From NCBI GenBank assembly GCA_011375175.1, contig DRME01000063.1, positions 12,182 to 76,181 of the forward strand: 64,000 bases of DNA. The letters run 5' to 3'. The notes under the pieces were generated by a model. That model worked only from the letters and a program-made list of their open reading frames with translations, was not told where the DNA came from and did no database searches. The DNA is from Deltaproteobacteria bacterium (GTDB lineage Bacteria > Desulfobacterota > GWC2-55-46 > DRME01). Position 1 is the first letter of the stretch. Each line of letters begins with the position of its first letter. Position numbers and translations under genes: made by a program. Positions 14,495 through 37,675 of the stretch are shown piece after piece.

Positions 14495-14504
14495 GCGGGC
14501 GGGG

Positions 14505-19864: not shown

Positions 19865-21272
19865 GAAGAAGGCCCAGGTGCTGGCCGCCGCGGCCTACGG
19901 CATCGACATGGCGGCGACCGTCGCGTCCTTCTATCTCGCCTACTGGATAAGGGATACGTGGTTCACCTCCTTCGACAAGCTCTTCGGACTCGCCCAGTAC
20001 CACTGGCTGCTGCTCTTCATCATCCCGATCTGGACGGCCGCCCTCTTCTACGCCGGCGCCTACAGGTTCTCGCTCACCTCGTCGCTCGTAAGGGACCTCG
20101 TGCGCGCCTGGACGGCCGTGCTCGTCGGGGCGCTCGCGCTCGCGGCCCTCATCTTCCTGTACAAGACCCTCTACTTCAGCCGGCTCTTCCTCGCCGTATT
20201 CGTCGCATCGAACCTGTTGACGCTGACCGTGACGCGGCTCGTCTTCTACAAGGTGGTGGCCTGGGGTCTGCGAAGCGAGCAAAACAGGAGAAACGTCATA
20301 ATCGTCGGCACCGGCGGGACGGCACGCAACATCGGGAGGCTCGTGGCCGAGCACAGGGGCTGGGGCTTCAACCTCCTGGGCTACATAAGGGAGGACGATA
20401 CCGGCGGGGAGGCGGGCGGGCTCGGCGCTCCCGTCATAGGGACCATAGGGGACATACCCGAGCTCGTGCGAAAGAGCGTGGTCGACGAGGTCATCTTCGC
20501 CGTCTCGCGCGAGCGTGTCGAGGAGCTGGAAAACATCTTCCTCTTCCTCGAGGACCACGGCATAAACGCCCGCCTTGCGCTCGACATCTTCCCCCACATG
20601 ATAGCGAGGGTCCACATCGAGGAGATAGGCGATACGCCGCTTCTCACCTTCACCACCATACCGACCAACGAGGTGGCGCTGCTCGTCAAGCGCCTCGTCG
20701 ACATAGTCCTCTCGGCGGCCGCTCTGGTGCTCCTCTCCCCGCTCTTCGCCGTCATACCGGTCCTCATAAAGCTCACCTCGCCGGGGCCGGTCCTCTTCGT
20801 GCAGAAACGCTGCGGGCTGAACGGCAGGGTCTTCGACTTCTACAAGTTCCGCTCCATGTACGTCGGCTCCGAGAAGATGAAGCCACGGCTTGCTTCCCTC
20901 AACGAGAACGACGGTCCGGCCTTCAAGATGCGCAACGACCCGAGGATAACGCCCGTGGGCAGGTTCCTGCGTAAGACGAGTCTCGACGAGCTGCCCCAGT
21001 TCTGGAACGTCCTCAAGGGGGACATGAGCATCGTCGGCCCGCGGCCGCCGATCCCCTCCGAGGTGGCCCGTTACGAGCGCTGGCAGAGGCGAAGGCTCTC
21101 CATGAAGCCGGGACTCACCTGCCTGTGGCAGGTGAGCGGGCGCAGCCTGCTCCACTTCCACGACTGGATGCGCCTGGACCTCCAGTACATAGACAACTGG
21201 AGCCTCTGGCTCGACATAAAGATAATGTTCAAGACCATCCCCGCCGTCTTCTCCGGCAAGGGCGCCTATTGA
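19857..21272 (+). CDS. Initiating polyprenyl-phosphate hexose-1-phosphate transferase (WbaP/WcaJ bacterial sugar transferase family)
   Basis: GTG start overlaps the upstream stop. It has N-terminal TM segments and a C-terminal bacterial sugar transferase domain (…[27 protein letters not shown]…[21 protein letters not shown]…). Confidence 0.85.
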
Positions 21273-21460
21273 ACTGAGGGAACCTTTTTGTAAAAAAGGT
21301 TCCCTCAGACTCCCTCCAAAAACTTTTAACGCCCTGCGGACCATCCCGATTCTGCTTGCAGAATCGGGATGGTCCGCAGGGGATTAAAAGTCTTTGAAGG
21401 GGGTCTGGGGGAAACGTGGGCCTGTGGCCCTTCTGCGGAAAGTTTCCCCCGGTGAAGGCT
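21273..21460. repeat. Composite palindromic repeat, copy 3 (inverted orientation relative to copy 2)
   Basis: Contains ctgagggaacctttttgtaaaaaaggttccctcag, the hairpin tcccgattctgcttgcagaatcggga and gggggaaac…gtttccccc-type modules. Confidence 0.75.
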
Positions 21461-22335: not shown

Positions 22336-22994
22336 GGCCCGGTCCCGCCGCCCCGCAGGGGCCTGGCCGGCACGCCGGCCACGACCGCACCGTCGGCAAC
22401 GTCCCCCACCACCACGGCTCCGGCCCCCACAACGCTCCCGGCTCCGATCCTCACCCGCTCCTTCACGACCGCGCCGGCGCCGATGTAGGCGCCATCGCCC
22501 ACCGTCACGTGGCCGCAGAGCGTAACCCCCGGACCTATGAAGGCGAACTCTCCTATGCGGTTATTGTGGTTCACCACGGCGCCCATCCTCACGGCCGCCT
22601 GCCTCCCGACGACGACGTCCGCGCCGAAGAGCACGCCCGCCATGACCACGGCGCCCGTGCCCACCTCGACGCCGGCGAGGTCGCAGGCCGGGTGGACGAG
22701 GGTTGCGCAGCGCGCCCCGGCGGCCTCGATCCTCGCCGCCACGGCGCGCCTTGCCGCCGTGGTGGAGAAGACGTTGTTTACCAGCAGGCAGCCACGCTTC
22801 ACGTACTCCTCTATGGCCTCGCCGCCGCCGAGTATGGGAAGGCCCATGAAGGATGTCTCCCTGCCGGCCTTCAGGTCGTCGAGGTAGCCCGCCACGCGGA
22901 AGGCAGGGGCCTCGGCGTTGACGGCGCCGATGAGCTTGAGAGTGTCGGGGTACGACGCCCCGTATATCAAGAGGTCTTCGACGGCGGCCTTCAC
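22332..22994 (-). CDS. Sugar O/N-acetyltransferase, NeuD/PglD family (left-handed beta-helix)
   Basis: GTG start preceded by GGGAGAGGA. The N-terminus is LLIYGASYPDTLKLI…FRVAGYLDD. The C-terminus has hexapeptide repeats (IGPGVTLCGHVTVGDGAYIGAGAVV…). Confidence 0.75.
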   Translation of the reverse strand: MKAAVEDLLIYGASYPDTLKLIGAVNAEAPAFRVAGYLDDLKAGRETSFMGLPILGGGEAIEEYVKRGCLLVNNVFSTTAARRAVAARIEAAGARCATLVHPACDLAGVEVGTGAVVMAGVLFGADVVVGRQAAVRMGAVVNHNNRIGEFAFIGPGVTLCGHVTVGDGAYIGAGAVVKERVRIGAGSVVGAGAVVVGDVADGAVVAGVPARPLRGGGTGP

Positions 22995-23944
22995 GTCCTC
23001 TCCCTTATTATGTAGCGCGGCGAGTGGTTGACCTCCTCGATGATCCTTATGAGGTACTCGCCGATGAGACCCATGGAAAGGAGTATGAGGCCGCTGAAGA
23101 AGGTGATGAGCAGCACGAGCGTTATGAATCCCGGGGCGCTCACCTTGCCCTGCGCGTACCAGAAGGCGTAGAGGGCGGTGAGCAGCAGGCTCAGCGACGC
23201 CGCCGCGAGTCCCACGAGACTCACCACCTTGAGCGGCAGGGTGGAGAAGTTGAGGACGTTGTCGAGCGTGATCTTCACAAGCCTTGCAAGGCTGTAGCCC
23301 GAGCGCCCGTGCCTGCGCTCGTCGTGCTCGACCTCCACGTTGACTATGGAGCGGGCGTTCCTGAGAAGCAGCGGCGTGAGCACGGGATTGCGCGTCCTGT
23401 ACTGGACGAGGGCGTCGCGCACGCCGGCCGTGAAGATACGGAAGCTCGACGTGGTGAGATCGCGGGGCTTGTTGAATATGACGCGGTATATCCACGACAC
23501 GAAGGCCGTGCCCATGTTGCGGTAGAGGCTGTGGCGCTTGGTGCGGGGGGCGCCGATTACGCATTCCACCTCGTCGTCCGACTCTATCCTTGCGATGAGT
23601 TTCGGTATCTCTTCGGGCGGGTTCTGGAGGTCGTCGTCGAGGGTTATGACGTAACGGCCCCTGGCGTGATCGAGGGCGCAGAGCAGGGCCTTGTACTGGC
23701 CCACGTTGCTCATCATGCGAAATCCCCTTATGGCCGGATAGCGCTTCTTCAGCCTCTTTATCTCCCGCCACGAGCCGTCGCGCGATGCGTCGTCCACCAG
23801 TATGACCTCGTAGGGCCGCCCCGTGGCGTCCATTACGGCCGTGAGGCGCTCCATGAGCTCGGCGAGCGTGGCCTGCGAGTTGTAGACGGGGATGGTCACC
23901 GAGTAGACCGTCTCTTCTTCGTCCATGGAAAGGTGCTCAGCCAT
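22991..23944 (-). CDS. GT2 glycosyltransferase, polyprenyl-phosphate sugar synthase-like (DPM1/ArnC/GtrB-like) with C-terminal TM helices
   Basis: ATG preceded by GGAGGA. It has YSVTIPVYNSQATL…VILVDDASRDGS…TLDDDLQNPPEEIP and two C-terminal TM segments. Confidence 0.8.
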   Translation of the reverse strand: MAEHLSMDEEETVYSVTIPVYNSQATLAELMERLTAVMDATGRPYEVILVDDASRDGSWREIKRLKKRYPAIRGFRMMSNVGQYKALLCALDHARGRYVITLDDDLQNPPEEIPKLIARIESDDEVECVIGAPRTKRHSLYRNMGTAFVSWIYRVIFNKPRDLTTSSFRIFTAGVRDALVQYRTRNPVLTPLLLRNARSIVNVEVEHDERRHGRSGYSLARLVKITLDNVLNFSTLPLKVVSLVGLAAASLSLLLTALYAFWYAQGKVSAPGFITLVLLITFFSGLILLSMGLIGEYLIRIIEEVNHSPRYIIRERT

Positions 23945-23987
23945 CGGGTATCCTCCGGGCAGCGCCGGCCGGGGCGGCGGGGCCTCG

Positions 23988-26021
23988 CTATGAGCGGCCC
24001 CCGCCCTCTTCCACGTAGAGGTCGAGGGTCGCCGTCTTCGCCCCCTTCTGGGCGAACCAGGCGACGTTCTCCTGGACAAGGTCGATCTCCACCGTGTAGC
24101 GGCCGGGCCTGCGCGGGGCGATGAAGCGCGCGCCGTTGACCGACGTCGTGCCCGGCGTCACGCAGTAGAGCGGCGTGCGCGAGAAATCCCGGTCGATCAT
24201 GGCGCCGTCGCCGTCGCGCAGCTGCGCGCCGACGCGCACGGGAAAGAACCTCGTGGAGCAGAGCGTGTGGGTGCCCCTGTTCGTTATCTCCACCGGGACC
24301 ACCACGATCTCGCCGGGCAGGGCGCGCACCTGCTCCACGGCGGCGCGCAGCTCCACCCGGAAGGCGCTCTCCGGGAGCCTGAAGTCGAGTGGCCGGGTGA
24401 GGGCGCGGTAGTCGCGCCAGGCCGGCAGGCGCTCGGTTATGTTGTAGTCGAAGGCGAGGATGCGGTACGGGCCGTGGGCGAGCTCGCGGGCCGGGCGGCC
24501 GAGCCGCGTAAAGAGGATTTCGTTGTCGATCTCCTCGCCCGGCGAGAGCATGATGAAGCTCGGTCCCCGGTGGTTCTCGGCCGCGTACCAGCGCCGCGAC
24601 GACAGCCAGTAGTAGGGCTCCAGGAGTCCTTCGGCGTTTATGAGAATCTGGTTCGTCTGCACTCTCCAGTCCGAGAGGGCCGTTATGACGCCGGCGTTCC
24701 AGAAGGTGGCGTAGCCGTAACTCGCGCCTTCGGCCTCTAAGAAGGCCGTGACGTCGGAGAAGTGGTTCCTCTGACGACCGAGCTCGATGGAGCCGTCCGG
24801 GCGGACCTTCAGCAGCGCCGGTGCGTTGAGCAGGAGCATGGAGCTCAAGCAGAAGGGGAGCAGCGCCGCCGTCAGCGCCGCGGCGGACTTCTCGCCGAGG
24901 CGCAGGCCGTCGACGGACATGCCGAGGACGACGGTCGAGAGGAAGAGCGGATAGACGAGGTAGCGCGACGAGAACCTGTCTATGGTGACGGTGGTGAGGA
25001 GCAGCGAGAGCAGCGCCACCGTGAGGCAAAGGCCGTAGTAGGCCACCATCATCCGCAGGCGGCGGTCCCCGCCGCCTCTTGCGGCGACCAGCATCCACAG
25101 CGGCACCAGGAAGACGACGGCGGCGAGAAAGGCGCCGCGCAGCCAGTTGAGCGGCGCAAAGGGGATGTAGAAGGGGGCGCGTCCCGTGAAGACGCCGTTG
25201 AAGAGAAAGCCGAGGCCCTCCAGCACTATCCTTGCGTTTTCGGGGATCCTCTCGTAGGGGACGAGTCTTATGGGCGCGCCCGCGGCCGTGCCCTTGGAGG
25301 CCGCGAAGGCCCAGTAGCTCATGATTCCGCCGAGAGAGGCGAGCACCCATATGCCGGCGACAACGAGGTAGCGGTAGTCGCGCTCCCCGTGGCGCCTGTC
25401 CATGACCCATGCGCCGAGAAGCACGGCGACGAAGGGGAGGATGTTTCGCGCGAGGTTGGATAGGCCGGTGAGGGCGTTGAAGAAGACGAGAAAGAAGAGC
25501 AGGGCCGTCAGCGCCGCGGCCCGGCTCTCCCGGAGAAGGTCGCTATTGAGCAGGGAAAAAGAGACGGCCACGGCGGCCAGCGCCACGAGTGTGCCGTCGA
25601 GATAGGACGCCTGGCCGTACATGTACTCGGCGAAAAAGGACGATACCCCCGTTCCAAGGAGCGACGCCGTCACCAGGAAGCCTATGGAGGTGCGGCCTCC
25701 CATGACGGCCCTGACCGTCCACAGGAGGGCCGCGATGAAGGCGAGGACCGCAAGGCCCCGGCAGGCGATGGAGTAGCCCAGGAAGGGGGAGAAGAGGTGC
25801 ATCAGGAGCGTGGGCTTGAGGAGCATTATGCCCGTGCCGTAGTTCCACAGCGCCGGAAGCAGCGACCACGAGTCGCGCTGTTCCCTGGCAAGCCCCATGT
25901 AGGCCGCCGAGTCGGAGTGGAATATGACCGGATATGTGACGAATATATAGAAGAGCAGCGACAGCGCGCCTGCTACGGCGGTCGCCTGGAGCATGAGTGC
26001 CGCAGGGCGGTTAAAGCTCAA
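23988..26021 (-). CDS. Large polytopic membrane protein, putative GT-C-fold glycosyltransferase
   Basis: 677 aa. It has ≥10 predicted TM helices in the N-terminal two-thirds and a ~250-aa soluble C-terminal domain. It is the first gene of the operon, directly upstream of the GT2 polyprenyl-P-sugar synthase. Confidence 0.45.
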   Translation of the reverse strand: MSFNRPAALMLQATAVAGALSLLFYIFVTYPVIFHSDSAAYMGLAREQRDSWSLLPALWNYGTGIMLLKPTLLMHLFSPFLGYSIACRGLAVLAFIAALLWTVRAVMGGRTSIGFLVTASLLGTGVSSFFAEYMYGQASYLDGTLVALAAVAVSFSLLNSDLLRESRAAALTALLFFLVFFNALTGLSNLARNILPFVAVLLGAWVMDRRHGERDYRYLVVAGIWVLASLGGIMSYWAFAASKGTAAGAPIRLVPYERIPENARIVLEGLGFLFNGVFTGRAPFYIPFAPLNWLRGAFLAAVVFLVPLWMLVAARGGGDRRLRMMVAYYGLCLTVALLSLLLTTVTIDRFSSRYLVYPLFLSTVVLGMSVDGLRLGEKSAAALTAALLPFCLSSMLLLNAPALLKVRPDGSIELGRQRNHFSDVTAFLEAEGASYGYATFWNAGVITALSDWRVQTNQILINAEGLLEPYYWLSSRRWYAAENHRGPSFIMLSPGEEIDNEILFTRLGRPARELAHGPYRILAFDYNITERLPAWRDYRALTRPLDFRLPESAFRVELRAAVEQVRALPGEIVVVPVEITNRGTHTLCSTRFFPVRVGAQLRDGDGAMIDRDFSRTPLYCVTPGTTSVNGARFIAPRRPGRYTVEIDLVQENVAWFAQKGAKTATLDLYVEEGGGRS

Positions 26022-26295
26022 CGGTATTTTCCTCGATATTAATGTTGTCGTCCCGTGCGGGGCCGCAGGCCCCGCCGTGACGGCGCCATGTGTGCATTAT
26101 AATATACAGTATGAGCCGGAAGCAGGGCAATACAAATCTCGACGGCGGCCATAGCGCTTGAAGGAGGTTCGGCGTAGTGGTAAGATCAGCGGAACAGACC
26201 GTTTCTTCCTGCAGTGTTCACGTCGAGGGCGCCGGACGGGCCGCCTCGGCCCTCACCGGCGGCTTCGAGCCGGCCCGCGACTCCGGGACCCCGTA

Positions 26296-27342
26296 ATGTC
26301 TCTGTCAGCCAAATCGTCGTTTCTTCTCAGTCTCCTCTACGCCAGGGCAGCGGGCAGGAGGATACCGCTCACCGTCATATTCAACGTAACGGACCGGTGC
26401 AACCTCAAGTGCGCCTACTGCTACGCCGGGTACCACAGGCGCCGGAAACCGGAGCTCACGACCGGCCAGATAAGGCGCGCAATCGACGAGCTCGCGGAGA
26501 TGGGCTGCCGCCGCGTGAGCATAAGCGGCGGCGAGCCGCTTCTCAGAAAGGACATAGGCGAAATAATAGGGCACGTCAGGTCGCTGGGGCTCATGTGCAC
26601 GGTCAACAGCAACGGCGCGCTCGTGCCCCGCAGGATCGACGACCTCCGGGGCATAGACGCCCTCGCCCTGAGCCTCGACGGCGACAGGGAGGCCCACGAC
26701 GCATACCGCGGCGAGGGGAGTTTTGATCGGGTCATCGAGGCCATAGAGGCGGCCAGGGCCGCGGGCATAAGGGTCCACACCAACACGGTCCTTACGAAAA
26801 AGAACCTCCATACCGTCAAGTTCGTCCTCGATCTGGCCGATGAATATGAAATAATGGCCGAGTTCAACCTCTGCATCGCCTATCTCTTCGACAGGGACAA
26901 GGCGGCCGACTACAAGAGCGACGACGAGAAGATAAGGGATGTGCTAAGAGAGATCATAAGGTACAAGGACGAGGGCAGACGCATTCTCTTTTCGCGGCAG
27001 GCCTACGAGCTGAGCCTCAAGTGGCCGAGCTACGACATGGAGTCGGTCTTCGGCGAGGAGCCGGACTTTCCCCACGCCCGCTGCGCCGCGGGCCGCTACT
27101 TCTGCTTCTTCGACACCGACGGCACGCTCTACGCCTGCCCCCATCTCATGGGTCTGCAGAAAGGGCGCAGCGTCGTGGCCGACGGCCTTGCAAGGGCCTT
27201 CGACGGCCTCGACGACCACGACTGCAGGGCCTGCTACCAGGTATACCACAACGAGTTCAACCTGCTCTTCGGCCTCGACTGGAGGGTGCTGGCCAATCAG
27301 ATACGGAACAACCTCTTTTCCTTTCACCGCGAACGAGAATGA
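26296..27342 (+). CDS. Radical SAM/SPASM domain protein (paralog A)
   Basis: CNLKCAYC (Cx3Cx2C) at residues ~24–31 and GGEPLL. The C-terminus has Cys clusters typical of SPASM auxiliary Fe-S domains (CAAGRYFC…YACPH…HDCRACY). Confidence 0.85.
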   Translation: MSLSAKSSFLLSLLYARAAGRRIPLTVIFNVTDRCNLKCAYCYAGYHRRRKPELTTGQIRRAIDELAEMGCRRVSISGGEPLLRKDIGEIIGHVRSLGLMCTVNSNGALVPRRIDDLRGIDALALSLDGDREAHDAYRGEGSFDRVIEAIEAARAAGIRVHTNTVLTKKNLHTVKFVLDLADEYEIMAEFNLCIAYLFDRDKAADYKSDDEKIRDVLREIIRYKDEGRRILFSRQAYELSLKWPSYDMESVFGEEPDFPHARCAAGRYFCFFDTDGTLYACPHLMGLQKGRSVVADGLARAFDGLDDHDCRACYQVYHNEFNLLFGLDWRVLANQIRNNLFSFHRERE

Positions 27343-27395
27343 GGGGCCGTCTCCCTCGTGCGGAAGGCTTCCCCGGCAACGGAGGGTTATGACCA

Positions 27396-28433
27396 ATGAG
27401 CCTTGCTGACAGGGCCGTATTCTTCGGGAGGGTCATAAAGTCGCGGCTCACCGGCGCGCGCGCGCCGCTCGTGGTTGTGCTCAACGTCATCAACCGCTGC
27501 AACCTGCGGTGCATATACTGTTACGGCGAGTACTACGACAGGAAGGTCGCCGACTTCACCACCGGCGAGCTGAAGGACCTCATAGACGAACTCGCCGCCA
27601 TGGGCACCAAGTCCATAACCATAGGCGGCGGCGAGCCGCTGCTCAGAGGCGACATAGGCGAGATAATAGCCCACGTCAAGAGCCGCCGCATCGAGTGCGG
27701 CATGAACACCAACGGCACTCTCATACCGAAGAAGATCGACGCCGTCTCGCAGCTCGACTCGGTCTGCGTGAGCCTCGACGGCGACGAGGTGCCCAACGAC
27801 CTCAACCGCGGCGACGGCACCTACCGCCGCATCGTGGAGGGCATAAAGGCCGCCAGGGCCGCCGGCGTCCACGTCCACACCAACACGGTGCTCACGAGGA
27901 ACAGCATAGGGTCCATAGACCATATCATGAGGCTCGCCCGCAAGCTCGGCTTCATGACGGAGTTCAACCTGCCCTTCTACCTCGGCGAGAGGGACTCGAA
28001 GAACGACGAGCTCTATCCAGACGACGAGCAGTGCCGCCGGGCGTGGCGCAAGATACTGGACTACAAGGCCAGGGGCTATCCCGTGCTCTTTTCGAGGGCC
28101 TCGCACCTCTACGCCCTGCGCTGGCCCGACTACCGCCGGCGCGTCTACTACGACGAGGACCCCGACTTCGATTACATACGCTGTTACGCCGGCAGGCTCA
28201 TGTGCTTCATAGACAGCGACGGGTCGGTCTACCCCTGCGCGCAGCTTATCGGCACCTTCGAGGCCCGCAACATACGCGACGAGGGCGGCTTCGCCGCCGC
28301 CTGGGAGCACCTGGCGTCAAACCCATGCAGGACCTGTTACTTCACGTGCTTCAACCACTTCAACCTCATCTTCAGGCTCGACGCCTCCACCATCGCCGAG
28401 ACCGTGAAGAACACCTTCAGGGAAGCGCTCTGA
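27396..28433 (+). CDS. Radical SAM/SPASM domain protein (paralog B)
   Basis: CNLRCIYC, GGGEPLL and a C-terminal Cys cluster (CYAGRLMC…YPCAQ…NPCRTCY). It is collinear throughout with paralogs A and C. Confidence 0.85.
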   Translation: MSLADRAVFFGRVIKSRLTGARAPLVVVLNVINRCNLRCIYCYGEYYDRKVADFTTGELKDLIDELAAMGTKSITIGGGEPLLRGDIGEIIAHVKSRRIECGMNTNGTLIPKKIDAVSQLDSVCVSLDGDEVPNDLNRGDGTYRRIVEGIKAARAAGVHVHTNTVLTRNSIGSIDHIMRLARKLGFMTEFNLPFYLGERDSKNDELYPDDEQCRRAWRKILDYKARGYPVLFSRASHLYALRWPDYRRRVYYDEDPDFDYIRCYAGRLMCFIDSDGSVYPCAQLIGTFEARNIRDEGGFAAAWEHLASNPCRTCYFTCFNHFNLIFRLDASTIAETVKNTFREAL

Positions 28434-29476
28434 TGTCAGCCGTGTGGGAGAAGGCCGCTTTCTTTCTGAAACTCCTTCGCCTCAGGGCCACCGGCGCCAG
28501 GGCGCCCCTCTTCGTCTTCTTCAACGTCACCAACAGGTGCAACGCCCGCTGCTCCTACTGCTTCGGCGCCTACTACGAACGTTACGCAAGCGAGCGCCGC
28601 AGGGAGCTCACGACGGGGCAGATACTCTCCGTCATAGACGGGCTCTCGGATATGGGCACGCGCCGCATAGGCATCACGGGCGGAGAGCCCCTTCTGAGAG
28701 AGGACATAGCCGAGATCATAGCCCGCATAAGGGAGCGGGGCATGAGCTGCGGGCTCAACACCAACGGCTTTCTCGTGCCCGCGAGGCTCGACGACATCAG
28801 GGGCGTGGACAACGTGACCATAAGCCTCGACGGCGACAGGGACGCCCACGACGCCAACAGGGGAAAGGGGAGCTTCGACAGGGTCATGGCCGCCGTGGAG
28901 GCCGTGAGGGCCGCCGCCATACCGCTCCACCTGAGCACGGTCGTGACCGCGCGCAACAGGGACTCGCTCGATTTCGTAATGGAGTTCGCCAGGCAAAGGG
29001 GCGTACCCGTCCAGGTGAGCCCCCTCTACGAACGCTTCTGGGGCGAGAAGGACGAGGGCTTCCCGGCAAAGCTCGATCAGGGGGAGCTGCGCGAGACCAT
29101 CGGGCGCGTCATGGAGTACAAGCGCCGGGGATACCCGGTCTTCTTCTCGCTCAGGACCTACGAGAAGATACTGGCCTGGCCCTACGGCGACCGCGACAGG
29201 GTGGTGGGCGAGGAGCCGGACTTTCCCCACGCCCGCTGCTACATGGGCCGCCTGCTCTGCACCATCGACGCCAGCGGCGACGTCTACCCCTGCGCCCAGC
29301 TCGAGGGCTTCAGGGTGAAGAACGCCGTGGAGGACGGCCTGCGCGATGCCTTCGACAACATAGCGGACCACGACTGCCGGGCATGCCTCTGGGCCTGCTA
29401 CAACGAGTACAACCTCCTCTTCGCCCTCGACCCCGCCGTCCTGTGGAACACGGTGAGGAACGCATTGACGCACTGA
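28433..29476 (+). CDS. Radical SAM/SPASM domain protein (paralog C)
   Basis: ATG overlaps the upstream stop (TGATG). It has CNARCSYC, GGEPLL and a C-terminal Cys cluster (CYMGRLLC…YPCAQ…HDCRACLWACY). Confidence 0.85.
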   Translation: MSAVWEKAAFFLKLLRLRATGARAPLFVFFNVTNRCNARCSYCFGAYYERYASERRRELTTGQILSVIDGLSDMGTRRIGITGGEPLLREDIAEIIARIRERGMSCGLNTNGFLVPARLDDIRGVDNVTISLDGDRDAHDANRGKGSFDRVMAAVEAVRAAAIPLHLSTVVTARNRDSLDFVMEFARQRGVPVQVSPLYERFWGEKDEGFPAKLDQGELRETIGRVMEYKRRGYPVFFSLRTYEKILAWPYGDRDRVVGEEPDFPHARCYMGRLLCTIDASGDVYPCAQLEGFRVKNAVEDGLRDAFDNIADHDCRACLWACYNEYNLLFALDPAVLWNTVRNALTH

Positions 29477-29482
29477 GGGGCC

Positions 29483-30517
29483 ATGGACAACGGTACGGAC
29501 ATATCGGTCGTAGTGCCCGTCTACAACGAGCGCGAGGTGCTGCCCCACCTCTACGAGCGGCTCGCCTCGGTGCTCGAGGGCCTGGGGATGAGCTACGAGA
29601 TAATCTTCGTCAACGACGCGAGCACCGACGACTCGCTCCATATCCTGCGGGGCCTTCACGAGCGCGACGGCCGCGTGAAGATACTCTCCTTTTCGCGCAA
29701 CTTCGGCCACCAGACGGCCGTCACCGCCGGGCTCAACTTCAGCCGCGGCCGCGCCGTCGTCGTCATGGACGGCGATCTCCAGGACCCGCCCGAGTGCATA
29801 CCGGCCTTTGTCGCCAGATGGAGGGAGGGCAACGAGGTCGTCTACGGCGTCAGGAGAAAGCGCAAGGAGAGCCTCATGAAGAGGGCGCTCTACAAGGTCT
29901 ACTACCGGGTGCTGCGCCTCCTCTCCAAGGTGGACATACCGCTCGACAGCGGGGACTTCTGCCTCATGGACCGCAAGGTGGTCGAGCTCCTGAACCACAT
30001 GCCCGAGCGCAACCGCTTCGTGCGGGGGCTGCGCCGCTGGGTGGGCTTCAGGCAGGCGGGCGTGCCCTACGAACGCGACGCCCGCTACGCCGGCGAGTCG
30101 AAGTACACCTTCTTCAAGCTCGTAAAGCTCGCGCTCGACGGCATCGTGAGCTTCTCGGAGCTGCCGCTCAAGGCCTCGGTGCTCATAGGCTTCGCCATAT
30201 CGATAATGACGGTCGTATACTCCTTCTATCTCATAGTCAACAGGATCGTCCACCCCGCAAACCAGATACCGGGCTGGACGTCCATCATCGTGGCCGTCAC
30301 CTTTCTCGGCGGCATAGAGCTCATGGTCATGGGTTTCCTCGGCGAGTACCTGCTGAGGATATACGACGAGGTCAAGGACCGTCCCCAGTACATACTCAAC
30401 GGGGTCATAGGATTCGAGGAGAAGGGCGATGCCGAGGGTGTCGGTGGTGATTCCGGCCTACAACGCGGAGAAGTACATAGAGAAGTGCCTGGCCTCTCTC
30501 AGGGCCCAGAGCTATGA
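29483..30517 (+). CDS. GT2 glycosyltransferase, polyprenyl-phosphate sugar synthase-like (ArnC/DPM1-like)
   Basis: ISVVVPVYNERE…IIFVNDASTDDS…VVMDGDLQDPPECIP with C-terminal TM helices. Its last ~30 aa overlap the next gene by 89 nt. Confidence 0.8.
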   Translation: MDNGTDISVVVPVYNEREVLPHLYERLASVLEGLGMSYEIIFVNDASTDDSLHILRGLHERDGRVKILSFSRNFGHQTAVTAGLNFSRGRAVVVMDGDLQDPPECIPAFVARWREGNEVVYGVRRKRKESLMKRALYKVYYRVLRLLSKVDIPLDSGDFCLMDRKVVELLNHMPERNRFVRGLRRWVGFRQAGVPYERDARYAGESKYTFFKLVKLALDGIVSFSELPLKASVLIGFAISIMTVVYSFYLIVNRIVHPANQIPGWTSIIVAVTFLGGIELMVMGFLGEYLLRIYDEVKDRPQYILNGVIGFEEKGDAEGVGGDSGLQRGEVHREVPGLSQGPEL

Positions 30518-31439
30518 CGACTACGAAGTGATAGTCGTCGACGACGGCTCCACGGACCGCACGGCCGAGCTGGCCGCCGCATACGCCCGTGTCGTGAAGG
30601 CGCCGCGAAACCTCGGCGAGGGGGGCGCCCGGAACCTCGGCGCCCGCGAGGCCGAGGGCGAGATACTGGCCTTCACCGACGCCGACGTGGTCGTGCCCGA
30701 GGACTGGCTCGAAAAGATCGTCGCCACCATGGACAAAGAAGGGGTCGAGTGCGTGGGAGGCGGCTACTGCGGCTCCATGGGCGACGGCTTCATCGAGCGC
30801 TTCGCCTTCCACGAGCTCGCCTACAGGCGAAAGGACCTCGCCGGAGAGGTCAACACCATAGTCTCCAACAACTTCGCCTGCCGCCGCGACGTCTTCTGGG
30901 AGTTCGGCGGCTTCCCGGAGCGCTACAAGGTCGAGGACCTGCGGCTCTCCTACCTCATAAGCAGGAAGTACAGGATCCTGTGGGACAGGACGAACGGCGT
31001 CTACCATCACTTCCGTCCCGACCTCTACGGCTACCTGCGCCAGATGTACTACTTCAGCAGGGACACGGTCTGGACCTACTACAGCTACCCGGAGCTCGTC
31101 TTCCACAGGACCCACCAGGGCAGGCTCATATACGTCGAGATAATGAGCGTGCTCGCCGCCCTGGCGGCCGCTCCCCTCTGGCCGGCGGCGCTGCTCTTTG
31201 CGCCCATGGCCGTGGGGGCCCTCAACTACGGGTTCCTCAGCCACCTCGCCCGAAACCGTCTGTCCGTGGCCCGGTCCATGGGCGTTATCATAGCGAGAGA
31301 CCTTGTCGTCTCCCTCGGCATCGTCACGGGCGCGGCGCTCTGCGCCGGCGACGCATGGTCGCGGCGCTTCGGCTCCGCCAGGGGATGCGCGGAAGCGGGG
31401 AGCGACACCGATGAAGAGAGAAAGGACTTCGTGAAGTGA
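30429..31439 (+). CDS. GT2 family glycosyltransferase
   Basis: VSVVIPAYNAEKYIEKCL…VIVVDDGSTDRT…FTDADVVVPEDWL (a DxD-type GT-A fold) with a hydrophobic C-terminal region. Confidence 0.8.
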   Translation: MPRVSVVIPAYNAEKYIEKCLASLRAQSYDDYEVIVVDDGSTDRTAELAAAYARVVKAPRNLGEGGARNLGAREAEGEILAFTDADVVVPEDWLEKIVATMDKEGVECVGGGYCGSMGDGFIERFAFHELAYRRKDLAGEVNTIVSNNFACRRDVFWEFGGFPERYKVEDLRLSYLISRKYRILWDRTNGVYHHFRPDLYGYLRQMYYFSRDTVWTYYSYPELVFHRTHQGRLIYVEIMSVLAALAAAPLWPAALLFAPMAVGALNYGFLSHLARNRLSVARSMGVIIARDLVVSLGIVTGAALCAGDAWSRRFGSARGCAEAGSDTDEERKDFVK

Positions 31440-31449
31440 GGAGACCGTT

Positions 31450-32967
31450 ATGAAGATACTTCTTGTAAACCCTCCGTGGTACAGGCTCCAGGGCGCCTCT
31501 CTGGTGCACTATCCGCCGGGTCCCTGCTTCGTGGCCGGGGCGCTCGAGAAGGCGGGCTACGAGCCGGTGGTCTGGAACGCCGACTTCGACCCGGCCGTCA
31601 GGTCCGTCATAGGGGGCACCAACGTGCTCGACACCGACGAGCTCACGCAAAAGCACAGCATCTACCAGAAGAACCTCAACGACCTCTCGGCGCCCGTGTG
31701 GCGCGAGGTGGCCTCCATGATCGAGCGCTTCGCACCCGACGTGCTCGGCGTCTCGGTCTACAGCGCAACATACAAGGCGGCCCTCAACGTGGCCCGCATA
31801 GCAAAGGAGGTGAACCCCGCCGTAACGACCGTCTTCGGAGGCATACACCCCACCATAGCCACCGAGGAGGTGGCCTCGCAGCGCGACGTGGACTTCGTCG
31901 TCTTCGGCGAGGGCGAGCGCACGGTGGTGGAGCTCGTGGGGGCCCTGGAGGCGAGAGACGGCGCTGGCCGCGACTTCTCCTCCATAAAGGGCATCGCCTT
32001 CAAGGACGGGGACGGCAACGTGGTCAGGACCGAGCGGCGCGAGTACATAGAGGACCTCGACGCCGAGGTCTACCCGGCCCGCCACCTCATCCACGACGTG
32101 GAGAGCTACCCGCCAACGGCCTTCCAGGGCATATACGGCTCGCGGGGCTGTCCCTTCAAGTGCATATTCTGCGGCTCCTTCAACCTCTGGGGCTACAGCG
32201 TGAGGACCAGGAGCGCCGAGACCCTGGTGGCCGAGATCGAGGAGACACACCGCCGCTTCGGCACCCGCTACTTCTACCTCTGCGACGACATATTCTTCAT
32301 AAACCGCGAGCGGGCGCGCCGCTTCTGCGAGCTGCTCATCGAAAAGGACCTGGGCGTCATGTGGTCGGCCCAGACGAGGGCCGAGATGGTGACCGACGAA
32401 CTCCTTGCGCTCATGAAGAAGGCCGGCGGCCAGCACGTGGCCATTGGGGTCGAGACCGGCGACGAGAGGATAAGAAAGCTCATAAAGAAGGGCAACACGC
32501 TCGAGCAGATGCGCCGCGCCGCAAGGCTCGTCCACAAGCACGGCCTGACGCTCGTCGGCTTCTTCATGTTCGGCTTCCCCTGGGAGTCGCGCGAAGAGAT
32601 AAGGCGCACCGTCGAGTTCATGAAGGAGATAAACCCGACAATCGCCTTCCCCTACATAGTCACGCCCGCCCCGGGCACGGAGTTATCGCAGATATCGCAC
32701 GAGATGGGCCTTGTGGGACCCGACCGGGAGCTCGAGAACTTCTACCACGAGAGCCCGGAGATGTGCCTGAGCGTCAACATCCCCGAGGAGGAGAGAAAGG
32801 GCATAATCGACGAAACGCTCAAGGTCTTCGCCGAGCACAACAAGAAGCGCTTCAGGCTCGACGTGCTGAAGAGGCCGCGCTTCTACTACACGCTCTTCCA
32901 CGACTTCGGGTTCTTCAGAAACCCCATGCAGTTCGTCCAGGTCCTGAGGGACGTGGTCGCGGGCTGA
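31450..32967 (+). CDS. B12-binding (class B) radical SAM protein
   Basis: The N-terminal cobalamin-binding-like Rossmann region (MKILLVNPPW…, VLGVSVYSATY…VFGGIHPT) is followed by an rSAM core CPFKCIFC. Length is 505 aa. Confidence 0.85.
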   Translation: MKILLVNPPWYRLQGASLVHYPPGPCFVAGALEKAGYEPVVWNADFDPAVRSVIGGTNVLDTDELTQKHSIYQKNLNDLSAPVWREVASMIERFAPDVLGVSVYSATYKAALNVARIAKEVNPAVTTVFGGIHPTIATEEVASQRDVDFVVFGEGERTVVELVGALEARDGAGRDFSSIKGIAFKDGDGNVVRTERREYIEDLDAEVYPARHLIHDVESYPPTAFQGIYGSRGCPFKCIFCGSFNLWGYSVRTRSAETLVAEIEETHRRFGTRYFYLCDDIFFINRERARRFCELLIEKDLGVMWSAQTRAEMVTDELLALMKKAGGQHVAIGVETGDERIRKLIKKGNTLEQMRRAARLVHKHGLTLVGFFMFGFPWESREEIRRTVEFMKEINPTIAFPYIVTPAPGTELSQISHEMGLVGPDRELENFYHESPEMCLSVNIPEEERKGIIDETLKVFAEHNKKRFRLDVLKRPRFYYTLFHDFGFFRNPMQFVQVLRDVVAG

Positions 32968-32982
32968 ATAGAGGCCGCGGCT

Positions 32983-35412
32983 ATGGAGCAGCACAAAGCA
33001 GCGCAGCGCCGCAGCGCCGCCCCTGTGCTCGTCGGCGCGGCGGCGCTCGCCGCCTTCGCGCTCCTCAGCCGCGGGCTCATCACGGGCGACGAGATATTCA
33101 CCCACGACTCGCTCCTCTCCTACGGCCCCTTCCACTACGCCCTCGACGCCATGAGCGAGGGAATAGTGCCGCTCTGGGACCCCTACAGCATAACGGGGCT
33201 GCCCTTCTATCCCAACCTCAACTTCTCGTCCCTCATAGACCCGCTCATACTGCCCTTCATCCCCCTTGCGCGGCTTTCCGGTCCCGACTTCGTGCTCTGG
33301 TACGTCCACTTCTGGCTCGTAAAGCTCCTCGTCTTCGCCCTGGGCGCCTATCTTCTCTTCTCCCGTGTGGCCGGGAGCAGGGCCGCCGGGGCCGCCGGAG
33401 CGGGCGTTCTCCTTCTGGCCGTCGCGCCCGTCTCCTTCAGGCAGCTCGGCGTCATATGCGCGGTCTACCTGACGCCCATGGTCATGTATCTTCTGCTGCG
33501 GCTCTTCGACCCTGGCACGAGACGGCAGACGAGGCTTCGCCTCGCGCTCTTCGTCCTTACGGCAGGCGTCTCCCTGAACCTCTTCATCCCCGTCTACTTC
33601 CTCTTCAACATCGTCTTCTACGCCGCCGCCCTTGTGGTCGCCGGGGCCGTGAAGTGGAGGGAGGGGCTCGCGAGGTTCCGGGGCGAAGACGGCCCCGGCC
33701 TCCTATTCCTGCTGTTCGTGCTCGCCGCGGCCGTCATGATCTGTGGTCCGCTCCTCGCCCTCTACATCGACTCATCGGGCGGCGAGATATTCCCCCACAT
33801 ACGGATACTCCAGAAGAACGGCTGGGTCTACAAGCAGATGATGGCCTCGGAACTGGCCGGCGACGTGCTCTCCCACAAGTTCACCAGGTCCCTGGGCGTG
33901 TACAGCTCGCTGGGCAACCTCGTAAACCTCGTCTATCCCGACATGTTCCGCTCCTACTTCGCAAGGGCCGACTACTTCAGGATGAACGACCTGACGAGCG
34001 AGGTCTTCCAGTACATGGGCATCGTGCCCTTCGTGCTGGCCCTGGCGGCCCTTGTGCGCTCGCGCTCGCCCCATCGCCTCGCGGCCCTTCTCATGGTCGT
34101 GATCACAGGGGTGAACATGATAAGCCTCGAGGGCGTGCACGACAGGGCGCCCAACGTGGTGCAGAGGCTCTTTTCCGCCGTATTTCCGCCCCTTGAGATG
34201 ATAGACGTGAAGGAGCAGTTCGGGGGGTTCTTCCTCCTCTACCTCTCCATGCTCTTCTCGCTCGGCGTAAGGCCGCTCTTCGAGGGCCGGGACTTGGGGG
34301 CGGCGGCGCGCTCGCTCCTGCGTCCCGTGCTCGTCGCCTCGGCGGCCGTGCTCGCCTTCAAGCTCGCCGTCTCGTGGGCCTGCTTCGGGCGCCTGCTCTT
34401 CGTCTCGGGCCTCGATCTCCTCTGCCTCGCCGTGCTCGCCGCCTTCTGCGCCCTCCTCGTCCTCTTTGCGGGGACCGGCAAGGAGAGACGGCGGCCTCTG
34501 TTCACGGTCCTTCTCACGGCCTTCCTCTTCATCGACCTAACGGCCGCGGGCGCCGCCATGAAGCGTTACGTGGTCCAGCCCAACACCCTCTCCCCCGTCC
34601 TGAAAAAGCACGCCCGCAAGGGCTCTTTCGGCGAAGACTTCGAGCTCTACCGCATCCCCTTCATGGACGTGAGCCTCGTCTACGCCGAGGCGGTCTTCAA
34701 GCGGAAGAGCTCCATCGCCCCCGGCGGCGTCCACAGGCAGATGTTCACCACCAAGCGCTACTACGACCTCCTCACAAACGTCCCTCTCGAAAAACACTTC
34801 GCCCTCACCGGCATCGTCTATCCCCTGTTGCGGTTCGTCCCCGCCGGTGACGCCGAGCTCGTCCCGGGCAGACGGGAGGCCTTCTCGGCCGTAAGGGAGG
34901 CGACCATCGAGGAACTGGGCCGCAAGGTCTTCATAGAGAAGGACGGCGCCGCCGGGGGGCCTGCGGCGGACTTCAAGAGCCTGGACGAGTTTCCCGACGC
35001 CCCCTGGCTCATGGCGGTCAACGTAAAGCGCGCCTACCGCCGTTTCCTCGAAAGGGAGAAGGCCCTTGTGGAAGGGGCGAGGAGACGGGCCGGCGACTAT
35101 ATCGAGACCGACCGCTTCGGGGTGCGGCTCCTGGAGTTCACGCCCAACACGGCGGTCTTCGGCGTCCGAAGCCGCGTCGACGGCTATCTCTACTACAACG
35201 ACGGCTGGAGCCGGTACTGGAGGGCGACGGTCGACGGCCGCGAGGCGGAGCTTCTCGTGGCGGACTACAATTCCAAGGCCGTCGCGCTGTCGGCCGGCGA
35301 GCACACCGTAAGGCTCGTCTACGACCCCCTGCACTACAGGCTCGGTCTCTTCGCCTACCTCGCGGCAATCGCCGCGCTGCTGGGGGTCGTGCTCCTCAAC
35401 ACACGCCGTTGA
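32983..35412 (+). CDS. Large polytopic membrane protein (YfhO-like/GT-C-like)
   Basis: 809 aa with ≥12 predicted TM helices and a C-terminal soluble domain. It lies downstream of two GT2 polyprenyl-P-sugar synthase-like genes. Confidence 0.45.
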   Translation: MEQHKAAQRRSAAPVLVGAAALAAFALLSRGLITGDEIFTHDSLLSYGPFHYALDAMSEGIVPLWDPYSITGLPFYPNLNFSSLIDPLILPFIPLARLSGPDFVLWYVHFWLVKLLVFALGAYLLFSRVAGSRAAGAAGAGVLLLAVAPVSFRQLGVICAVYLTPMVMYLLLRLFDPGTRRQTRLRLALFVLTAGVSLNLFIPVYFLFNIVFYAAALVVAGAVKWREGLARFRGEDGPGLLFLLFVLAAAVMICGPLLALYIDSSGGEIFPHIRILQKNGWVYKQMMASELAGDVLSHKFTRSLGVYSSLGNLVNLVYPDMFRSYFARADYFRMNDLTSEVFQYMGIVPFVLALAALVRSRSPHRLAALLMVVITGVNMISLEGVHDRAPNVVQRLFSAVFPPLEMIDVKEQFGGFFLLYLSMLFSLGVRPLFEGRDLGAAARSLLRPVLVASAAVLAFKLAVSWACFGRLLFVSGLDLLCLAVLAAFCALLVLFAGTGKERRRPLFTVLLTAFLFIDLTAAGAAMKRYVVQPNTLSPVLKKHARKGSFGEDFELYRIPFMDVSLVYAEAVFKRKSSIAPGGVHRQMFTTKRYYDLLTNVPLEKHFALTGIVYPLLRFVPAGDAELVPGRREAFSAVREATIEELGRKVFIEKDGAAGGPAADFKSLDEFPDAPWLMAVNVKRAYRRFLEREKALVEGARRRAGDYIETDRFGVRLLEFTPNTAVFGVRSRVDGYLYYNDGWSRYWRATVDGREAELLVADYNSKAVALSAGEHTVRLVYDPLHYRLGLFAYLAAIAALLGVVLLNTRR

Positions 35413-35747
35413 AGGTCCTGCGCCTCCTCTCCGGGACCGGCTTGAGAAAAAGACGCGGCGGGGTGTTTTTTGTCTTGAGGCCGGCGGCACCCCGTGTTAA
35501 GGTCGCAGAGATGACCTTTCCCGCCTCTGCCTTGCCTCCCAAGTGCTTGATTTTAATAGCAGTTCCATTTCCGTTACACTTTCCGGCGCCACGGCGCCAG
35601 CCTCTCCCCTGAAAGACGAGGGACGAAAAAAAGCTGCCTGTGACCGGCGTCACATACCGTCTTACGCCCCTTTGCTATCATGGAGACAGGATAAAGAAGA
35701 AGAGCTTGCAGTGCATACACTTACAAATATGAGAGAACGGGGGCTTG

Positions 35748-37675
35748 AGATGAATAGGGGAACGGCAAAGACAAGGACGGCGGCGGCGGTGCTCATCTTC
35801 GCACTGTTTTTCCCTGTGGCGTCGTCGTATGGGGCCGATGCTACACTCACGTGGAACCCTCCGACCACGAACACCGACGGCTCTCCGCTCACTGATCTCG
35901 ACGGTTACTACGTCTACTACGGCACCACGTCCGGCAGCTACGACCAGAAGGTCGACGTGGGCAACATAACGGAGTACAAGGTCACGGGACTCACCTCCGG
36001 CACCCGCTACTACTTCGCCGTGACGGCCTACAACACGGCCGGCAGGGAGAGCTCCTATTCGGCGGAGAAGAGCAAGGTCGTCTTCGACGCCGACACCACG
36101 GCTCCCTCCATATCGGGCGTATACGTATCCAACATCGGCCAGACGAGCGCCGAGATAAACTGGACGACCGACGAGGACGCCGATTCGCTTGTCCGTTACG
36201 GCGTCACCGCCTCCTACGGTTCCAACGTCTTCGACTCGTCCATGGGCAAGGCCCACACCATGGTCATAAGCGGGCTCAGCCCCTCGACGACCTACAACTT
36301 CCAGGTGCTCAGCACCGACGCCTCGGGCAACCAGGCCTCTTCGGGCAACTACACGTTCACCACCGCCGACGTGCCCGACACGACGGCCCCCGCCATCTCG
36401 GACATCAGGTTCACCGACATCACCTCTTCGTCGGTGACCGTCACGTGGAAGACCGACGAGCCCTCCACCTCGCAGGTCGAGTACGGCCTCGACACTTCCT
36501 ACGCAAGCGCGAGCGCCCTGGACTCGACGCTCACCACGTCACACCGGGTCGTGATCACCGGGCTGTCGGCCTACACGACCTACCACGCGCGCGTCATCTC
36601 GGCCGACGCCGCCGGCAACAGCGCGGTTTCGAGCGATCACTACTTCATAACCTCCAACACGGCGCCTTCCATAACGTCGCTTGACGCCAGCCCCTCGTCG
36701 GGCTATGCGCCGCTGTATGTGAGCTTCACGGCGGCGGCCTCCGACGCCGACGGCTTCGTGGCGAGCTACGAGTGGGACTTCGACGGCGACGGCGCCTACG
36801 ACGACGACACGGGCACGGTGGCCGCGGCCTCCCACACCTACACGTCGCCCGGCACCTACACGGCCGTCCTCAAGGTGACCGACAACGGCGGCGCCTCGAC
36901 GACGGCCCAGGTTACGGTGACGGTCAAGGACGTGGTCAACACCCTGCCCGTAATATCGTCCTTCACGGCCGATCCCCTCTCGGGCACGGCCCCCCTCGAT
37001 GTGACCTTCAGCGTGTCGGCCTCCGACGCCGACGGCTCCATAGCGGGCTACGAGTGGGACTTCGACGGCAACGGCACCTACGAGGCCTCGACCTCCACCG
37101 TGCCGGTCTCCCACACCTACACGGCCCCGGGGACCTACAAGGCTGTGGTGAGGGTCACCGACGACGACGGCGCCTCGGTGACGGCCTCGGTGACCATAGA
37201 GGTGGCCGACGCGTCGTCCAAGGGCGCCGACACGACGGGGTCGACGACGACGACCACCACCTCGGCGGACAACACCACCACCTCGTCGCTCGCCGCATCG
37301 ACGACGGCCCAGGGGCCGGTGACCTCCGACGGCGGCAACTGCTTCATCGCCACGGCCGCCTTCGGCAGCTACCTGGACCCCCATGTGAACGTCCTCAGGC
37401 AGTTCAGGGACGAGTACCTGCTGACCAACGCCGCGGGCAGGGCGTTCGTGGACTTCTACTACGCCGTATCTCCTCCGCTCGCGGCCTTCATAGCCGACCA
37501 CGACTGGCTGCGGGCCGCTGTCAGGGTCGCTCTCACCCCCCTCATCTTCGCCGTGATGTACCCCGCGGCGGCGTTCATCGCGATGGCCGTCTTTGCGGCC
37601 GCCGCGGCCGTGAGCGTCTCGCTCTACCGTGACCACCGCCGCCGCCGCGCTCTCAGGAAAAAGTACTCCTTCTGA
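35748..37675 (+). CDS. Secreted multidomain surface protein: signal peptide, 3× FN3-like, 2× PKD, a Ser/Thr-rich linker, and a Cys-initiated C-terminal anchor module (TM helix plus basic tail)
   Basis: Signal peptide is [29 protein letters not shown]. There are three ~95-aa repeats with TAPxIS…Y…TTY (FN3-like) and two PKD repeats (YEWDFDGDG…HTY…GTY…V.VTD). The linker is [19 protein letters not shown]. The C-terminus is [28 protein letters not shown]…[44 protein letters not shown]. Confidence 0.8.

Follow-up and report, generated by a model that had tools for sequence, protein, structure and literature searches.

What three related radical S-adenosylmethionine (rSAM) enzymes do side by side within a polysaccharide locus is the question raised by a 64,000-nucleotide stretch of DNA from a Deltaproteobacteria bacterium (assembly GCA_011375175.1, contig DRME01000063.1, positions 12,182 to 76,181; the whole stretch is referred to here as the window). 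A first-pass annotation, made from the sequence alone, had described the three genes, here P1, P2 and P3, as SPASM-like paralogs that modify a glycan or an adjacent secreted protein. Our analysis leaves about an even chance that the trio are non-redundant, Twitch-type rSAM enzymes of an uncharacterised family, which tailor a carbohydrate for the cell surface and do not mature a peptide. The genes were called from the listing of open reading frames (ORFs) together with filtering on GC content at third codon positions (window GC ~65%), as follows (the clades are described below):

26296-27342, + strand: P1, Twitch-like rSAM paralog of the P1-type clade (348 aa; Radical_SAM 108.9 bits)
27396-28433, + strand: P2, Twitch-like rSAM paralog of the P2-type clade, the largest clade (345 aa)
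28433-29476, + strand: P3, Twitch-like rSAM paralog of the P3-type clade, which is rarer (347 aa; Radical_SAM 98.9 bits)
26022-26295, no strand: divergent intergenic (promoter) region between a 677-aa membrane-protein gene (- strand) and the rSAM operon (+ strand)

The three collinear, head-to-tail paralogs of ~345 aa are real, and the TGATG overlap reported for the last junction is seen between P2 and P3 (cTGATGt), where the TGA at 28431-28433 and the ATG at 28433-28435 share 1 nt. P1 and P2 are separated by a 53-nt spacer, the next gene (GT2a, see below) starts 6 nt after P3, and the pairwise identity of the three proteins is 42–49%. With gaps of −89 to +53 nt throughout, the trio constitutes the first genes of a tightly packed seven-gene operon (26296-35412). 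The intergenic region upstream comprises 274 nt and includes a local AT-rich stretch; a promoter and terminator scan of the operon gave nothing exceeding the shuffled expectation.

All three proteins belong to the radical SAM superfamily (PF04055): the Pfam Radical_SAM model scores 96.6–108.9 bits for P1–P3, against a cutoff of 29.5, and the CxxxCxxC, GGEP and SxDG motifs are kept in each. The first of these motifs had been placed at residues ~24–31; it is present in all three proteins, but ~11 residues further along, at residues 35–42 (36–43 in P3). Conservation of the cysteines was assessed in an alignment of 102 relatives and then in one of 128 sequences, and C35, C39, C42 and G78-G79-E80 proved invariant or nearly so. 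In P1 the cysteines concerned are 35/39/42 and 263/281/310/313. C263, C281 and C311 are each 100% conserved in the 128-sequence alignment and C314 is 99% conserved, with C270 (43%) and C318 (48%) optional, such that the universally conserved cysteines are the SAM-cluster triad and four C-terminal residues only.

The C-terminus is Cys-rich, as first described, but it does not constitute a full SPASM domain. The pattern used to define such a domain was CX9-15GX4C...CX2CX5CX3C...C, together with a Pfam score of at least 21.5 (PF13186). On alignment, the SPASM spacing in the trio is confined to the first half of the motif, the hairpin C263-x12-G276-x4-C281, and one downstream CxxC (C311-x2-C314). 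None of the three window paralogs has the 7-Cys core CX2CX5CX3C, nor has any of the 158 relatives that were retrieved (the top 150 representatives together with cluster members), and the Pfam SPASM model gave 19.9 bits for P2, 17.7 bits for P3 and no match for P1. In alignment, the hairpin corresponds to that of the SkfB Twitch domain, and strands E269-272 and E277-279 of the structure model have predicted local distance difference test (pLDDT) scores above 90. Twitch domains are truncated SPASM domains, with a C-terminal hairpin Cys pair and a downstream Cys, that hold a single auxiliary Fe–S cluster; in BtrN this cluster has four Cys ligands and the enzyme catalyses the two-electron oxidation of a secondary alcohol to a ketone, whereas in MoaA it has three ligands and the reaction is redox-neutral (PMC9012708). 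Because four C-terminal cysteines are conserved, on this definition the trio fits the Twitch type, with one predicted auxiliary cluster in what would be a fully ligated site.

Beyond this fold class, no curated name could be given to the trio. The profile classification that had been proposed was carried out against Pfam and NCBIfam: the match to Radical_SAM is strong and that to SPASM is sub-threshold, and no other family in either collection reaches its cutoff. The best NCBIfam models for P1–P3 (MftC, NirJ, AhbC/D, MoaA, StsB and HpnH) score 87–132 bits against cutoffs of 225–650. Structurally, the trio is matched best by the sugar decarboxylase BlsE (PDB 7vob), and SkfB, SuiB, anSME and PqqE are also close to it in both structure and sequence. 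Neither the three enzymes nor the cobalamin-binding rSAM of the same operon (B12-rSAM, see below) has any transmembrane (TM) segment, and their radical steps would therefore be cytoplasmic; an N-terminal amphipathic helix was considered as a membrane anchor for the rSAMs and set aside, as hydrophobic moments of 0.10–0.31 are unconvincing.

The tandem arrangement had been read as a local triplication. P1, P2 and P3 are split among three clades in a neighbor-joining tree of the family that was rooted with bona fide MftC sequences as the outgroup, and every one of these clades also contains orthologs from other metagenomes. Identity is 49–56% within the clades and ~38% between them, and 17 positions are clade-specific, including residues 316–319 beside the auxiliary-cluster CxxC. 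Orthologs of P1 comprise P0038, P0040 and genes in the related loci L007, L008, L009 and L090, and those of P3 comprise P0047 and P0053 (57–58% identity). P1-type and P2-type genes stand together in L007, L008 (a Patescibacteria single-amplified genome, SAG), L009 (Omnitrophota) and L090, and L088 contains P3-type and P2-type copies and probably also a P1-type copy. The tree and the clade identities rule out a recent tandem triplication: the paralogy is ancient, with P1- and P2-types pairing in Omnitrophota, Patescibacteria and other metagenome-assembled genomes (MAGs). To judge from their sequences, P1, P2 and P3 are old, specialised and non-redundant, and the separate ortholog clades and the clade-specific positions argue for the earlier suggestion of three related but distinct activities.

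Nor is the family rare. A word-indexed search found ~104 relatives (clusters) before scores fell to those of MftC, all from metagenomes or MAGs (Deltaproteobacteria, Omnitrophica and Patescibacteria), which gave an impression of rarity that was overturned by an exhaustive profile search: the latter returned 6,433 matches at E ≤ 1e-30 and more than 150 full-length clusters at 50% identity, each scoring at least 296 bits. The family is merely unannotated; none of ten sampled members carried an informative name. Among the GTDB species genomes, 14 loci (L008–L021) contain true members, all in MAGs or SAGs. Locus L005 repeats the window sequence (its proteins are 100% identical) and was left out of the independent support. 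A natural fusion was also encountered in P0247, where the partner of the family rSAM is another rSAM whose SPASM domain is genuine.

Downstream of the trio, the operon continues with two family 2 glycosyltransferase (GT2) genes and two further genes, a B12-rSAM and a candidate YfhO-like GT-C glycosyltransferase, which the first-pass annotation did not mention:

29483-30517, + strand: GT2a, putative PgfS/ArnC/GtrB-type polyprenyl-monophosphate sugar synthase (full-length PgfS/ArnC alignment)
30429-31439, + strand: GT2b, second membrane-anchored GT2, overlapping the 3' end of GT2a (Glycos_transf_2 141 bits from residue 5)
31450-32967, + strand: B12-rSAM, cobalamin-binding (class B), BchE/HpnJ-like (B12-binding 72 bits, Radical_SAM 91.5 bits)
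32983-35412, + strand: 809-aa polytopic membrane protein, candidate YfhO-like GT-C (transitive homology, model)

GT2a has a full-length GT2 domain followed by two C-terminal hydrophobic TM helices at ~233–286, and it scores below the equivalog cutoffs (PgfS 279 bits against 500, aligned over residues 7–306 of 308; ArnC 182 bits against 529). The best NCBIfam match of GT2b is MftF-like, at 126 bits and under cutoff. The overlap between the two genes is 89 nt if the GT2b ATG is the one that keeps the canonical GT2 N-terminus (MPRVSVVIPAYN); in the public gene call on the identical contig (L005), the start of GT2b lies 33 codons further downstream, which would truncate the domain, and the same junction in L007 and on the P0019 contig has overlaps of 8–35 nt. 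For the B12-rSAM, BchE (206 bits) and HpnJ (189 bits, against a cutoff of 577.6) are both under cutoff.

The 809-aa protein contains at least 12 hydrophobic segments and a C-terminal soluble domain. Its direct match to Pfam YfhO is 16.2 bits, below the cutoff of 28.5; in tblastn it matches the YfhO-annotated genes of L089 and L010 at 124–153 bits, and a 36% identical homolog (P0275) carries PF09586 YfhO. Its closest homolog (P0274) lies outside any cassette of the kind described below. D42, after TM1, is invariant. Five homologs were available for an AlphaFold2 model of low confidence (pLDDT 56), the top 12 PDB matches of which are all GT-C enzymes (Emb, ArnT, PglB, STT3 and DPY19), with weak E values of 2e-3 to 2e-2. 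These comparisons are suggestive of a YfhO-like GT-C glycosyltransferase.

The association of these genes is conserved. The core of GT2a, GT2b, B12-rSAM, P1-type and P2-type genes recurs at 46–63% identity in L007, L008 and L009: GT2a is 54–63% identical in L007 and L009 and is absent from the 11-kb contig L008, GT2b is 49–55% identical in all three, and the B12-rSAM (46–49% identical) adjoins the rSAM pair in all three. The taxa with the cassette include Omnitrophota, Patescibacteria, Planctomycetota and others. Across nine independent contexts annotated with Pfam (the window and eight other contigs), GT2 genes are present in seven, a B12-rSAM in eight and YfhO or PMT_2 in seven; Wzx-like flippases, LPG_synthase_TM proteins, GT4 enzymes, sugar O-/C-methyltransferases and transketolase subunits are also frequent. 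Many loci have two to five family paralogs and up to five or six B12-rSAMs. The richest in rSAMs (L011, L013, L014, L009 and L090) are from Firestonebacteria, Omnitrophota and unclassified MAGs; within ~20 kb, L013 has up to five family paralogs and L009, L011 and L090 have five or six B12-binding rSAMs. No description of the cassette was found in the full-text literature searched, the coverage of which is incomplete.

Clues to the chemistry come from members of the family in other loci. A class-III aminotransferase gene lies near a family rSAM gene in L003, L006, L010, L016, L017 and L018, and in L003 and L006 its start is 4 bp before the rSAM stop codon. In P0192 (L091, 9001-10923) an N-terminal short-chain dehydrogenase/reductase (SDR) is fused to a family rSAM, and the surrounding genes encode an NTP_transferase, a nucleoside diphosphate (NDP)-sugar epimerase/dehydratase, transketolase, a GT2 and a sugar C-methyltransferase. 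As aminotransferases and SDRs both use a carbonyl group, these associations would fit a BtrN-like dehydrogenation and, by analogy, point to a keto-sugar product for the family. C-methylation, which had been listed among the possible reactions of the trio, is unlikely because P1–P3 have no cobalamin domain; the adjacent B12-rSAM is the candidate for such a step.

The operon is embedded in a glycan locus of ~45 kb (1627-46535), identified by Pfam and NCBIfam scans as of the Wza/Wzc/Wzy type. Wza is encoded at 37857, Wzc at 38957, a Wzy_C protein at 43619 and a PMT_2 protein at 44946, and the locus also holds an ABC-2 transporter, several GT4 enzymes, GH99/WbsX-like proteins, methyltransferases, an initiating Bac_transf protein and a hexapeptide acyltransferase. 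Two features flank the operon directly:

35543-37675, + strand: fn3/PKD-repeat surface protein (PKD and fn3 domains), possible acceptor or accessory, operon membership uncertain
22991-26021, - strand: divergent pair, an ArnC-like GT2 gene (22991-24079) and a 677-aa membrane-protein gene (23988-26021)

The flanks are much as they had been described, with an ArnC-like GT2 and a polytopic protein divergently encoded upstream and two GT2 genes downstream. The upstream GT2 (ArnC 172 bits) is encoded by a gene that overlaps the 3' end of the 677-aa gene; the 677-aa protein has 10–11 TM segments and no Pfam or NCBIfam match, and the two may be a second candidate polyprenyl-phosphate-sugar/GT-C pair. 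Outside the window, the fn3/PKD gene was encountered only in L005, the identical sequence.

Elsewhere in the locus, a 1365-aa ORF at 7989-12086 (+ strand), flanked by GT4 genes and a methyltransferase gene, has a borderline Radical_SAM match at residues 1030–1103 (29.0 bits against a cutoff of 29.5) and may be a fifth radical-SAM-type protein. Near-perfect palindromic repeats that share sequence occur at 18417-18621 and 21267-21450 (arms of 101 nt at 85% and 56 nt at 89%); the GT4 and Bac_transf initiating-transferase genes (18701-21272) lie between the repeats, which resemble a REP/MITE-like intergenic element bracketing those two genes. The GH99/WbsX-like domains, found in two tandem ~350-aa proteins (13415-15557) and in a 720-aa GT4 fusion (3133-5295), where the C-terminal half is concerned, are weak matches, sub-threshold or barely above threshold.

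How might such a set of enzymes act together? From the context, we infer a dehydrogenation or a net epimerisation of a carrier-linked sugar. Each rSAM of the trio would hold one SAM cluster and one auxiliary [4Fe–4S] cluster fully ligated by cysteines. On the cytoplasmic side of the membrane, polyprenyl phosphate would be loaded with a sugar by GT2a, GT2b may extend this sugar, and the soluble rSAMs would remodel it, whether ahead of the loading or afterwards. In that reaction the 5'-deoxyadenosyl radical would take a hydrogen from a sugar C–H bond, and the substrate radical would then pass an electron to the auxiliary cluster to leave a keto-sugar, as in BtrN. In other loci, the ketone would be transaminated or re-reduced to give an amino sugar or an epimer; in the window, the BchE/HpnJ-like B12-rSAM would carry out a further radical step. 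Finally, the modified sugar would be flipped, and the YfhO-like GT-C would transfer it to the Wza/Wzc/Wzy polysaccharide or, as an alternative acceptor, to a surface protein.

Several points weigh against carbohydrate tailoring by the trio. The window operon itself has neither an aminotransferase nor an SDR, and the keto-sugar logic is borrowed from other clades; since BlsE is a decarboxylase, oxidative decarboxylation would be an equally plausible chemistry. The context of L091 would suggest a nucleotide sugar as a possible substrate in place of a lipid-linked one. The assignment of the 809-aa protein as a GT-C draws on transitive homology and a model of low confidence, and is suggestive. The contexts surveyed comprise ~20 loci of a much larger family, and each of its members is assigned from sequence and context rather than from biochemistry.

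A more specific form of the proposal is tentative, and we regard it as rather doubtful at present: an anaerobic route in which two or three specialised Twitch rSAMs, together with the BchE/HpnJ-like B12-rSAM, would oxidise, epimerise or rearrange the polyprenyl-phosphate-linked sugar made by the PgfS/ArnC-like GT2, before a YfhO-type GT-C attaches the product, which could be a branched, amino or even carbocyclic (cyclitol-like) sugar, to the cell surface. If it were true, the route would be the oxygen-independent equivalent of the chemistries of DprE1/DprE2 and HpnJ/Cds; it would establish a new class of decoration for surface glycans and would be found widely in Omnitrophota, Patescibacteria, Planctomycetota and Desulfobacterota.

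Among the alternatives, tailoring of a lipid survives best, and we consider it unlikely. The rSAMs and the B12-rSAM would then modify a polyprenol, a hopanoid-like or a membrane-spanning lipid, in the way that HpnH, HpnP/R, Tes and the ladderane-type B12-rSAMs act, and the GT2 enzymes would contribute no more than a head group. Matches to HpnH, HpnJ, Tes and a ladderane-type B12-rSAM are in line with this, but they are sub-threshold and generic to the superfamily. The window scans showed no squalene, hopene or ether-lipid genes, the surrounding locus is a classical one for polysaccharide export, and the links to aminotransferases and an SDR, together with the NDP-sugar context of L091, point to a sugar and not to a lipid. 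Published rSAMs do act on lipid-linked sugars (PMC13459092), which makes this explanation overlap in part with carbohydrate tailoring, as opposed to being a strict alternative to it.

That the trio matures a peptide or protein, as SPASM-like enzymes are commonly assumed to do, we judge to be quite improbable. Such enzymes would install a thioether, an epimer, a formylglycine or a cross-link on a ribosomally synthesised and post-translationally modified peptide (RiPP), or on the fn3/PKD protein, in the manner of SkfB, SuiB, anSME or YydG/EpeE. Structural similarity to SkfB and SuiB is what keeps this explanation in play; anSME and PqqE also speak for it as close neighbours, and MftC (TIGR03962) is among the best NCBIfam scores (105–132 bits); however, even 132 bits is far under the MftC cutoff of 265, as are all the NCBIfam scores under theirs, and an MftC assignment was rejected, with no small precursor and no protein with a RiPP recognition element (RRE) found. 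The trio is predicted to carry a single auxiliary cluster and not two. An N-terminal RRE is likewise lacking, as only 34 residues precede the cluster motif, which starts at residue 35, and these are modelled as a single helix.

A precursor was sought among all ORFs of 18–100 aa in 22 loci, with large ORFs masked before clustering. The clusters obtained without masking were antisense or out-of-frame shadows, and after masking nothing was common to more than two loci. Small ORFs of 23–53 aa in 26022-26295 have no counterpart in 21 related loci, and neither that region nor the inter-paralog gaps contain a convincing candidate, in agreement with the first-pass annotation. In one JGI contig (L001) a 59-aa ORF (9733-9912) lies directly upstream of a pair made up of a family rSAM and an rSAM/SPASM gene, but no similar ORF was found in the other loci; a standalone Peptidase_C39 in L006 is a further point in favour of maturation. 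With no RRE or PqqD-like domain and no conserved adjacent small ORF in the 22 loci, assignment to the RiPP rSAM maturases was rejected.

The anSME-plus-sulfatase combination that had been named as counter-evidence to glycan modification was examined, and neither part was found: anSME is outside the top 25 NCBIfam matches (the 4k36 profile scores 82 bits), the trio has one predicted auxiliary cluster, and no sulfatase domain occurs in the 41 ORFs of the 64-kb window scanned against Pfam. The secreted fn3/PKD protein directly downstream of the operon would be a possible protein substrate, but its gene is known from this genome only, whereas the neighbours of the family are consistently glycosyltransferases. 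Taken together, the missing RRE, small ORF and sulfatase and the glycosyltransferase neighbours support modification of a glycan over maturation of a peptide. Cofactor or tetrapyrrole biosynthesis (NirJ/AhbC/AhbD/MoaA/PqqE-like), placed by chance inside a glycan locus, is highly improbable: P1 has NirJ (112 bits) and AhbC (110 bits) as its top NCBIfam matches and MoaA scores 92–104 bits on all three proteins, but these scores are 3–6 fold under the equivalog cutoffs, the window has no heme d1, molybdenum cofactor or pyrroloquinoline quinone partner genes, and the linkage to GT2 and GT-C genes in one operon is kept across phyla.

Tailoring of a surface carbohydrate by the trio can now be set beside known systems. 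To our knowledge, sugar-acting rSAMs come almost only from antibiotic pathways (BtrN, DesII, BlsE, AprD4 and GenK), and we know of no radical chemistry in the polyprenyl-phosphate-sugar/GT-C decoration systems (Arn, Gtr, CsbB/YfhO and Pgf). BtrN/SpeY-type Twitch dehydrogenases have a single four-Cys auxiliary [4Fe–4S] site, as predicted for the trio. The ketone formed by BtrN is used by an aminotransferase in the 2-deoxystreptamine pathway, a pairing to which the family rSAMs near an aminotransferase in six loci may be likened. BlsE, a cytosylglucuronate decarboxylase, is only 19–20% identical to the trio and acts in an antibiotic nucleoside pathway (blasticidin S), whereas the trio is encoded in a surface-glycan locus. 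Its putative second-cluster motif, reported as C317xC319xxC322 (PMC3715490), also differs from the hairpin-plus-CxxC pattern that the trio and its relatives conserve.

The operon encodes the putative synthase GT2a and a YfhO-like polytopic protein together, an arrangement shared with ArnC/ArnT, GtrB/GtrC, CsbB/YfhO and PgfS/PgfM, in each of which a polyprenyl-phosphate sugar synthase is coupled to GT-C decoration. In the Arn pathway, too, oxidation or decarboxylation of the sugar is coupled with its transamination ahead of transfer by the GT-C. No rSAMs are known in these systems; the cassette has two or three Twitch rSAMs and a B12-rSAM alongside its GT2 and GT-C. In the DprE1/DprE2 system, decaprenyl-phosphoribose is oxidised to a ketone and re-reduced by an SDR, and the product feeds the Emb/Aft GT-C arabinosyltransferases. 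The SDR-rSAM fusion P0192 would mimic the DprE2–DprE1 pair by functional analogy only: DprE1 is a flavoenzyme, not an rSAM, and there is no sequence relationship. HpnI/HpnK/HpnJ, which make the hopanoid cyclitol ether, and the calditol synthase Cds provide examples of rSAM ring contraction of a lipid-attached sugar to a carbocycle (PMC13459092). HpnJ is among the two best NCBIfam matches of the operon B12-rSAM, although at 189 bits it falls far below 577.6; the Hpn and Cds pathways have no counterpart of the Twitch trio, and the window has no hopanoid or glycerol dialkyl glycerol tetraether genes.

The operon joins two known schemes, polyprenyl-phosphate-sugar/GT-C decoration and rSAM tailoring of sugars as in BtrN, BlsE, DesII and AprD4, and a conserved cassette unites them in several uncultured anaerobic phyla. 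For this rSAM family, the rule that SPASM-like means peptide maturase is a poor default annotation; the family merits a curated one, and offers a testable starting point for finding new sugar chemistry at the cell surface of anaerobes that are still uncultured.

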